Source: a virus
Lineage: Duplodnaviria > Heunggongvirae > Uroviricota > Caudoviricetes
Virus record (IMG/VR): IMGVR_UViG_2671180849_000006
Reading direction: 5' to 3' (one strand)
DNA: 4,347 nucleotides
Under the pieces are notes generated by a model that was not told the origin of the DNA, ran no database searches, and was given only the letters and a program-made list of their open reading frames with translations. Position 1 is the first letter of the stretch; each line of letters opens with the position of its first letter. This document shows, one piece after another, positions 1-1,147 of the stretch. A program made the translations under genes and the position numbers.

Positions 1-1147
1 CCGGGAACCAGCCATTGCTGTTTGTCTCAATAATGCTCGCCGGCCCCAGACGAAAACGGATTTGTGTCTCCCCCGGGTCGCCCTTCGGTCCCTGAGGTCC
101 GGTTGCCCCCACCGGGCCAGCCGCACCTGTTTCTCCTTTCGGTCCCTGTGGGCCTGCCGGGCCTGCCGCACCGGTATCTCCCTTTGGACCCTGTGGACCT
201 GCATTTCCCGTCAGACCGGTCTCTCCCCGCTCTCCTATGTCACCTTTCGGCCCCTGCGGGCCTGCCGGACCAGCATCACCTGCCGGTCCCCGTTCGCCGG
301 TTGCCCCGACAGGGCCGGTGTCACCGCGCTCTCCCTTATCACCCTTCGGCCCCTGAGGACCCGCGGGCCCCTGTTCCCCCTTTGGCCCGGGAGGTCCCAC
401 CACGGTGGGGATTCGGTTTACGGCCTCTTCCGCCGCTATCCTGCTTTGTTCCGCTGACTGTGCGCTTTCTGCTGACTCCCGGGCTTTTTCTGTTGCGGTC
501 GTTGCATCCCTGGCTGCATTACCGGCTGCACTTTCTGCCGTCTTTCTTGACAATTCAGCTTCTGCTGCACTTTGTGATGACTCACTGGCTTTTTGAGCGG
601 CCGCAGAAGCCGAGGACGAGGACGCATCCTCTGACTGCTTTGCTGAGGCTGCACTTTCTGCCGCCTGCCGGGCTGACTCCGATGCCTCCCCTGCTGAAGT
701 GTCAGCATTTGCAGCGCTCTCTTCTGCCTGACTGGCTGATATGCCGGCATTCCTCGCTGACGTCTCCGCCTCTCCGGCATTCTTCTTCGCCTCCTCAGCG
801 TGACGCGCCACCTCTTCCACCATCAGTTCAAAACGGCGCAGTGCCTCCGGCCGGACGTCATCCTCCGACATGGCACCGAGAAAATCATTCAGCGTACCGG
901 GTTGAGAATCTTCATACACGGTGATGGTCCCGGCATGTGACGGCGGGAATCCTTCCACCAACAGAATGACTCTGTACTGACCGTACTCAACGTCCATGCT
1001 GTAACGACCGGCTTCATCCGGATTTTCAGAGGCCACCGTGTTCACCACCACCGTGCTGCTGGTCCGTCTGGCTTTCAGTTGAATGGTGCAGTTCTCTACC
1101 GGTTTTCCTGTGCCGTCTTTCAGTACACCTGAAATCTTTACTGCCAT
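1..1147 (-). CDS. stf: Side tail fibre protein Stf, N-terminal ~382 codons (3' end of gene lies beyond window position 1; codon phase puts the last complete codon at 2..4)
   Basis: Hand translation of the minus strand from ATG at 1147..1145 shows no in-frame stop through position 2. The N-terminus [90 protein letters not shown] closely matches my recollection of the phage lambda Stf N-terminus. It is followed by an Ala/Ser/Glu-rich low-complexity segment and then a collagen-like region. Position immediately downstream of lom matches the lambda order. Absent from the supplied ORF track, apparently because the stop is outside the window. Confidence 0.85.
65..397 (-). repeat. Collagen-like Gly-X-Y triplet repeat region within stf (37 consecutive triplets; the motif GPQGPKGD/E recurs four times)
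   Basis: Minus-strand translation reads [111 protein letters not shown] with Gly at every third position and no interruption. The DNA is GC-rich with 9-nt periodicity, which also produces the long spurious plus-strand ORF at 64..924. Confidence 0.85.

Follow-up and report, generated by a model that had tools for sequence, protein, structure and literature searches.

The closest described relatives of the fibre treated here are the proteins named EPclA, for EHEC prophage collagen-like protein A, by Ghosh et al. in 2012 (PMC3368898). They consist of four parts in the order PfN, PCoil, Col, and PfC. Recombinant EPclA of O157 Sakai is a trimer, and circular dichroism (CD) showed that its collagen triple helix melts at 42 °C and its alpha-helical coiled coil at about 52 °C (PMC3368898). 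Both PfC and PCoil are trimerisation modules, and it is PfC that re-nucleates the collagen helix. When viewed by rotary-shadowing electron microscopy the protein is a dumbbell of 55-62 nm, in which a hinge connects PCoil, seen as a thick stalk some 16 nm in length, with the thin stalk of Col, which measures about 30 nm (PMC3368898). The Stx1 phage VT1-Sakai is the prophage Sp15, and its fibre ECs2941 (H0004) is found in Table 2 of that study as an EPclA of 437 amino acids with a PCoil of 116 and a Col of 111 amino acids, while ECs2717 of Sp14 is a further example. A Col of 111 amino acids is tabulated in 13 of the 15 EPclA entries for EDL933 and Sakai, one of 48 triplets is also listed, and the variation of Col length in multiples of three was already published in 2012 (PMC3368898). 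A literature search for functional work after 2012 gave no receptor for EPclA, and no adsorption phenotype was reported in the literature found.

The N-terminal part of such fibres is best understood from the side tail fibre Stf of Ur-lambda (PMC12617516, 2025). Residues 1-91 of Stf make up a beta-sheet collar domain, and twelve copies of this domain ring the junction between gpV and gpM, giving four trimeric fibres. Residues 92-101 form a flexible linker, and the coiled coil starts at residue 102 (PMC12617516).

Gene Order and Reading Frame

The window, that is, the whole stretch of DNA that was analysed, is 4,347 nt long. All of its real genes are found on the minus strand, and they follow the order J-lom-stf as in lambda (Table 1). 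The frame of the fibre gene begins with the ATG at 1147..1145 and comprises 382 codons (1147..2), being free of stops up to the edge of the window; neither a frameshift nor a stop precedes the Gly-X-Y region within these 382 codons. The remaining two minus-strand frames across the gene contain 11 and 18 stops.

The spacer of 64 nt between lom and stf is nearly identical to the lom-orf401 spacer of lambda, including a GC-rich hairpin followed by a T-run. Terminator-like hairpins are in fact found on either side of lom, the second one (1842-1859) being symmetric and placed directly after the stop codon of J. Antitermination is known from the late operon of lambda, and if these putative terminators function as such, the expression of stf would depend on it.

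The GC content is 66-68% over the region encoding the collagen and the coiled coil, compared with 44-55% in most of the window. Antisense to this region the plus strand contains ORFs of 131 and 286 amino acids within 62-924 (the longer one at 64..924), both rich in Pro, Leu, and Arg. They look like by-products of the runs of GGN, CCN, and GCN codons and were set aside as probable artefacts rather than genes; they could mislead gene callers.

Table 1. Features of the window, with positions counted from its first nucleotide.
Feature	Position (nt)	Strand	Basis and remarks
EPclA-type side tail fibre gene (stf homologue)	1..1147	-	3' end cut by the window edge; about 55 codons and the stop missing, judged from relatives
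PfC C-terminal knob, first 21 residues (aa 362-382)	2..64	-	PF06820; remainder outside the window
Col, 37 uninterrupted Gly-X-Y triplets (aa 251-361)	65..397	-	Triplet count; Pfam Collagen
Six dispersed 23-nt repeats coding GP(Q/P)GPKG(D/E)	78-100, 132-154, 177-199, 240-262, 339-361, 375-397	-	Copies 78-87% identical
Junction IPTVV (aa 246-250), short and non-repetitive, coiled coil to collagen	398..412	-	Sequence
PCoil (aa 101-245), heptad coiled coil with an Ala core; thick proximal half of the stalk	413..847	-	Periodicity analysis
PfN collar domain (aa 1-91), probable attachment of the fibre to the tail	875..1147	-	91% identity to Ur-lambda Stf 1-93; PF08400; role from PMC12617516
GC-rich hairpin and T-run in the lom-stf spacer	1164..1185	-	17 nt upstream of the stf ATG; conserved with lambda
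lom, Ail/Lom outer-membrane protein, 199 aa	1212..1811	-	PF06316, E=8e-119; 46% identity to lambda Lom
J (central tail fibre), 3' part, 821 aa in the window	1882..4347	-	Pfam Ig_J, Ig_J_second, Phage_Tail_Tip, Ig_GpJ_C

Identity and Distribution of the Fibre

The gene is an ordinary copy of a known E. coli prophage side tail fibre of the EPclA type and is not new, an identity that is directly established. The protein shares 374 of its 382 residues (98%) with H0004 of VT1-Sakai, the difference being eight substitutions and no gaps, and it is separated from its best relative by two substitutions and no indels. H0004 was annotated as 'tail fiber protein, similar to 933W L0121 and lambda Orf-401'. 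At the DNA level, 1,200 nt of the window are found at full length with 99.6-99.8% identity in numerous complete E. coli genomes, including many from Shiga-toxin-producing strains (STEC), e.g., O26 and O103, and records of Stx1a- and Stx2c-converting phages display about 99% identity to the window sequence. At least 80% of the query is covered at one place in 708 of 5,426 complete E. coli genomes, while some part of it is matched in 4,819. GenBank has contained the gene, under the VT1-Sakai tail fibre, since 2000 and the protein class was characterised biochemically in 2012, and the discovery value is therefore small. Its use lies in annotation, where it places the window at the J-lom-stf end of a lambda-like prophage, one of those with Shiga toxin or type III effectors as cargo.

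The stalk-coding region is internally repetitive as well as GC-rich, and the duplication in the neighbouring J gene (see below) hints at a possible mis-assembly of the contig, so that the run of 37 triplets might have been produced by sequencing or assembly. However, the many independent complete genomes that match at full length, together with the Stx phage records, speak against this, and 37 triplets correspond exactly to the 111 amino acids of the prevailing EDL933 and Sakai entries mentioned above (PMC3368898). The probability of such an artefact is regarded as practically negligible, and the stalk is in the following taken as a genuine part of an EPclA-type fibre.

The preliminary description placed the receptor-binding end of the fibre and a tfa gene outside the window. 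The remainder of PfC does lie there, but the missing part is small, because the 99.8%-identical relatives, in which the full-length gene has 437 codons, stop 55 codons past the window. These 55 residues complete a PfC of 76 residues in the relatives (PF06820 for the full domain in a 99.8%-identical relative, E=6.5e-36). No larger receptor-binding module is found in the window protein or in the full-length relative, and no intact tfa follows the fibre gene, in the region outside the window, in two close relatives or in VT1-Sakai. One of the two close relatives retains a tfa remnant of 67 nt.

In both of these relatives a free-standing ORF of 89 amino acids follows the fibre gene just past the left edge of the window (L001 7369-7638 and L002 7369-7638). 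In it a short leader rich in Cys (MNILKKLMQCLCGCGKHDG...) precedes a complete PfC (PF06820, E=9e-35) that is 35% identical to the PfC of the fibre itself. The ORF could putatively serve as a partner, a cap, or a spare cassette for the fibre tip. In the close relatives it is followed by the type III effector genes nleG and nleA, while in VT1-Sakai the next ORF after H0004 is H0003, which is similar to 933W L0122.

Domain Organisation

Pfam finds three families in the order PF08400, PF01391, and PF06820. The first of these (phage_tail_N) matches amino acids 1-133 with E=1e-68 and a score of 230 bits against a cut-off of 26.6. Residues 1-93 are identical to the N-terminal domain of Ur-lambda Stf (PDB 9e7m, chain Ta) at 85 of 93 positions (91%), and lambda orf-401 is 75% identical over residues 1-160, which bears out the lambda Stf-like N-terminus of about 100 residues reported earlier. 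When orf-401 was aligned with the window fibre protein, no similarity was found past residue 160. Because the collar domain is 91% identical to that of Ur-lambda, it is safe to expect that it would dock at the tail as in lambda.

The following segment was originally regarded as a low-complexity stretch of about 150 amino acids rich in Ala, Ser, and Glu. The composition was correctly described (30% Ala, 17% Ser, and 16% Glu for residues 106-250), but the segment is a regular heptad coiled coil and not of low complexity. For amino acids 101-245 the small and hydrophobic residues display a 3.5-residue periodicity with a power of 4.9, compared with 0.24 +/- 0.24 for shuffled sequences, none of which (0/2000) reached this value. 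A single unbroken heptad register spans the entire region, and its a and d positions are occupied by A, V, L, I, M, or F in 85-86% of the cases, versus 14-25% at the other positions. Amino acids 134-250, which lie between the PfN match and Col, amount to about 116 residues, the common length of PCoil in EPclA. The claim that the shaft differs from that of lambda consequently needs to be restricted; the coiled-coil half is of the same kind as the proximal shaft of lambda, only shorter, and the true departure from lambda Stf starts around residue 246. The hinge seen in EPclA likely corresponds to the IPTVV junction found at this point.

Col displays Gly at 37 consecutive third positions, which is far beyond chance, and matches Pfam Collagen (PF01391) with E=3e-18. 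The count of 37 uninterrupted triplets is thus exact, and so is their description as rich in Pro and Lys; Pro occupies 18 of the 37 X positions, while Lys and Arg are found at seven and three of the 37 Y positions, respectively. The PDB matches of this region to animal collagens, and to BclA, were rejected as homology since they reflect only the Gly-X-Y composition. Judged from the length and conformation measured on the same architecture (PMC3368898), Col is expected to be a collagen triple helix some 32 nm long.

Only the start of PfC is present in the window, but it is recognised by PF06820 with 31.5 bits against a cut-off of 25 (profile positions 1-20). For the Pf2 repeat (PF03406) no match was obtained in the window protein (E<=0.01) or in the full-length relative (E<=0.001). 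Modelling of the PfC knob alone by AlphaFold2 from a single sequence with no alignment gave a mean pLDDT of 48.8, too low for the model to be of use; the available homologues of the fibre are all more than 91% identical to it. A preprint on phi24B (2026) likewise obtained no confident AlphaFold model for this domain.

The domain boundaries, the heptad register, and the triplet count are directly established, while the trimeric state, the collagen and coiled-coil conformations, the dumbbell shape, and the function of PfC as a trimerisation module come from the work of others on proteins that are at least 90% identical. Because of this near-identity to the proteins measured (PMC3368898), the window fibre is predicted to be a trimer of the same collagen and coiled-coil type. 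The proposal of a collagen-like triple-helix stalk on a lambda-type attachment domain agrees well with this, given that EPclA, for which the collagen helix has been measured, has the same architecture. The fibre was also called a chimera, and it does join a lambda-like N-terminus to a collagen; the combination is, however, not exceptional, but the common architecture already named EPclA (PMC3368898).

Variation in Stalk Length

The comparison of triplet numbers among related prophages that had been suggested earlier did reveal a length polymorphism, Col ranging from 4 to 38 triplets among 120 cluster representatives from the protein search. The alleles were analysed using the 80 representatives in which the collagen run leads into PfC with its QIRFR start; 12 of these have 37 triplets and 68 are shorter. 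All 68 shorter alleles (68/68) are reproduced, at 91-100% identity, by introducing one in-frame deletion into the 37-triplet sequence. In seven of the 17 distinct deletion classes, comprising 48 of the 68 shorter representatives, the end points lie inside 7-11 residues of repeated sequence, compared with 1.0% of the 1,064 in-register deletions that are possible. These figures come from protein sequences, and the representatives, being related to one another, are not independent events.

Most of the end points fall in the repeated motif GPQGPKGD, while GPVGATG is another such motif. That the deletion ends of natural alleles fall in the motif supports the view that the six 23-nt repeats of Table 1 are the substrates of the in-frame length changes. 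The preliminary description proposed repeat slippage, and it was right in that the length varies, with ends in repeats. The repeats involved are, however, dispersed and imperfect rather than a perfect tandem unit. Classical slippage on a short unit is thus disfavoured. In the Col region Tandem Repeats Finder reports no arrays other than a single imperfect one (45 nt x2) and two mini-arrays of 9 nt, so that recombination between dispersed imperfect repeats seems to be the mechanism. The break points centred on the motif add a little to the length variation already known.

One might go further and regard the stalk as a discrete, resettable ruler. Recombination between the six dispersed repeats, and between paralogous prophage copies of the same genome, would then make it jump among a few lengths (4 to about 48 triplets, or about 3-42 nm), selection would match the reach to the thickness of the O-antigen or capsule of the host, and the 89-aa PfC ORF could swap or cap the knob. 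The directly established allele structure fits the recombination part of this proposal, which in its entirety must be considered quite unlikely.

The Adjacent J Gene

The J gene contains an in-frame tandem duplication of 648 nt (216 amino acids) on the minus strand, with copy A at 3699..3052 and copy B at 3051..2404, meeting at 3051|3052. Between them 25 nucleotides and nine amino acids differ (96.1% identity). The duplicated unit corresponds to residues 749-964 of lambda J, comprising the C-terminal part of the second Ig-like domain and the Phage_Tail_Tip domain. With residues 533-965 of lambda J, copy A and its upstream sequence share 97% identity, while copy B and the C-terminus are 70% identical to residues 749-1131 and include a divergent receptor-binding end. 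Because of this difference, J looks like two different alleles joined out of register.

The best genome matches to the 2,466-nt J query each occupy only 1,818 nt of the record. A probe consisting of every 28-mer across the joint was absent from the 5,426 complete E. coli genomes and from 50,697 phage records, and the exact 30-mer was absent from the GTDB species genomes, IMG/VR, and the JGI metagenomes. The duplication either arose by a rare, unequal recombination of J genes from paralogous prophages or stems from a chimeric assembly. In the former case the central fibre would be longer.

The C-terminal end of J (1882-2330, minus strand, residues ~673-821 of the window frame) is far more diverged from lambda J than the remainder. 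The C-terminal alignment covers 394 residues at 70% identity with 17 gap positions, and Ig_GpJ_C is recognised with E=4e-25. Because of this divergence the receptor of the phage may be another than LamB.

The prophage could also be defective, and the fibre gene could then be a decaying remnant whose frame is still open while the protein is no longer assembled into a particle. In relatives J is interrupted by an IS66-family insertion (O26 strain 11368) or truncated (VT1-Sakai), and the duplicated J of the window has a junction found in none of the collections searched. Frame-defective EPclA copies are known from the O157 prophages (Table 2 in PMC3368898), and the 3' end of the present copy lies outside the window. 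On the other hand, all 382 of the 382 codons are open, the few differences from VT1-Sakai and the best relative are all substitutions, and genes of defective EHEC prophages still pass by recombination into viable phages (PMC3368898). That the gene is a remnant is judged unlikely, with some real chance of being correct.

Assembly and Function of the Fibre

The protein is thus very probably a side tail fibre of the EPclA type, belonging to a long-tailed, lambda-like E. coli prophage of the Stx-phage kind and forming a trimer composed of collar, coiled coil, collagen, and PfC. Following J and lom, its gene would be expressed as part of the late operon, and three chains would assemble into one fibre. 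Extrapolating from Ur-lambda, the beta-sandwich collars (aa 1-91) would dock around the junction between tail tube and tail tip, as in lambda Stf. After a short linker would come a trimeric coiled coil with an Ala core (aa 101-245, about 16-21 nm), and then, past a hinge, the 37-triplet collagen triple helix of about 30-32 nm. The small PfC knob at the distal end would nucleate trimerisation and presumably touch the surface of the cell. A probable function of the fibre is to speed up or broaden the initial reversible adsorption, while J would make the committed contact with the receptor.

A different function would be that of a surface adhesin or virulence factor of the E. coli cell, similar to the streptococcal Scl or Bacillus BclA proteins, in which case it would not be a part of the virion at all. 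Collagen-like proteins of Gram-positive pathogens do serve as adhesins, BclA is among the PDB matches of Col, the adjoining lom encodes a member of the Ail/Lom outer-membrane protein family, and the bacterial role of the EPclPs was left open by Ghosh et al. (PMC3368898). The protein, however, appears ill equipped for such a role; reading of the fibre sequence revealed no signal peptide or hydrophobic N-terminal stretch, and no anchor motif is found in it or at the C-terminus of the relatives. The PDB matches are, as already mentioned, compositional, the gene follows J and lom in the late tail operon, and the N-terminal domain is 91% identical to one that has been seen bound to the lambda tail. 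A function as an adhesin is consequently very improbable, and the role as a side tail fibre is retained below.

Comparison with Known Systems

The fibre has its collar (91% identity over residues 1-93), the position of its gene after J and lom, and a coiled coil starting around residue 101 in common with the Stf of Ur-lambda (orf-401 + orf-314 of lambda). The coiled coil of lambda Stf is much longer (102-393), and lambda has, in addition to a hinge and a distal domain, a tip that binds OmpC as well as a tfa gene. In the window fibre the coiled coil ends around residue 245, and is followed by the collagen and a PfC knob of 76 amino acids, with no Pf2 repeats.

EPclB (933W L0121/Z1483, ECs1228 of Sp5, and gp61 of phi24B) is also built of PfN, PCoil, collagen, and PfC, with an N-terminal beta-sandwich for docking on the tail, and its coiled coil begins around residue 100. 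It is, however, a protein of 645 amino acids whose two collagen domains have a Pf2 repeat between them, while the window protein contains one collagen domain only. EPclB is further mounted on the podovirus tail of the short-tailed Stx2 phages, where six fibres are bound to the gp62 adaptor, in contrast to the lambda-type J-lom-stf module of the window gene. For gp61 of phi24B an earlier proposal that it binds BamA has been questioned by a 2026 preprint.

The collagen-like proteins of Gram-positive bacteria, such as Scl1 and Scl2 of S. pyogenes and BclA of B. anthracis, have in common with the fibre an unhydroxylated Gly-X-Y triple helix that is nucleated by a globular trimerisation domain (PMC3368898), and BclA gives a weak PDB sequence match to the Col region. 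These are secreted host proteins anchored to the cell or the spore, and they display other preferences at X and Y, whereas the window fibre is a virion protein lacking a signal peptide or anchor.

EPclA remains the closest system. The fibre shares with it PfN, a PCoil of 116 amino acids, a Col of 111 amino acids or 37 triplets, the PfC, of which the first 20-21 residues are in the window, and the location in the tail module of a prophage. The preferences at X and Y are also alike, with 49% Pro at X and 27% Lys and Arg at Y in the window compared with 48% and 31% in EPclA (PMC3368898). The differences from H0004 are confined to the eight substitutions and to the C-terminal 55 residues that lie outside the window.
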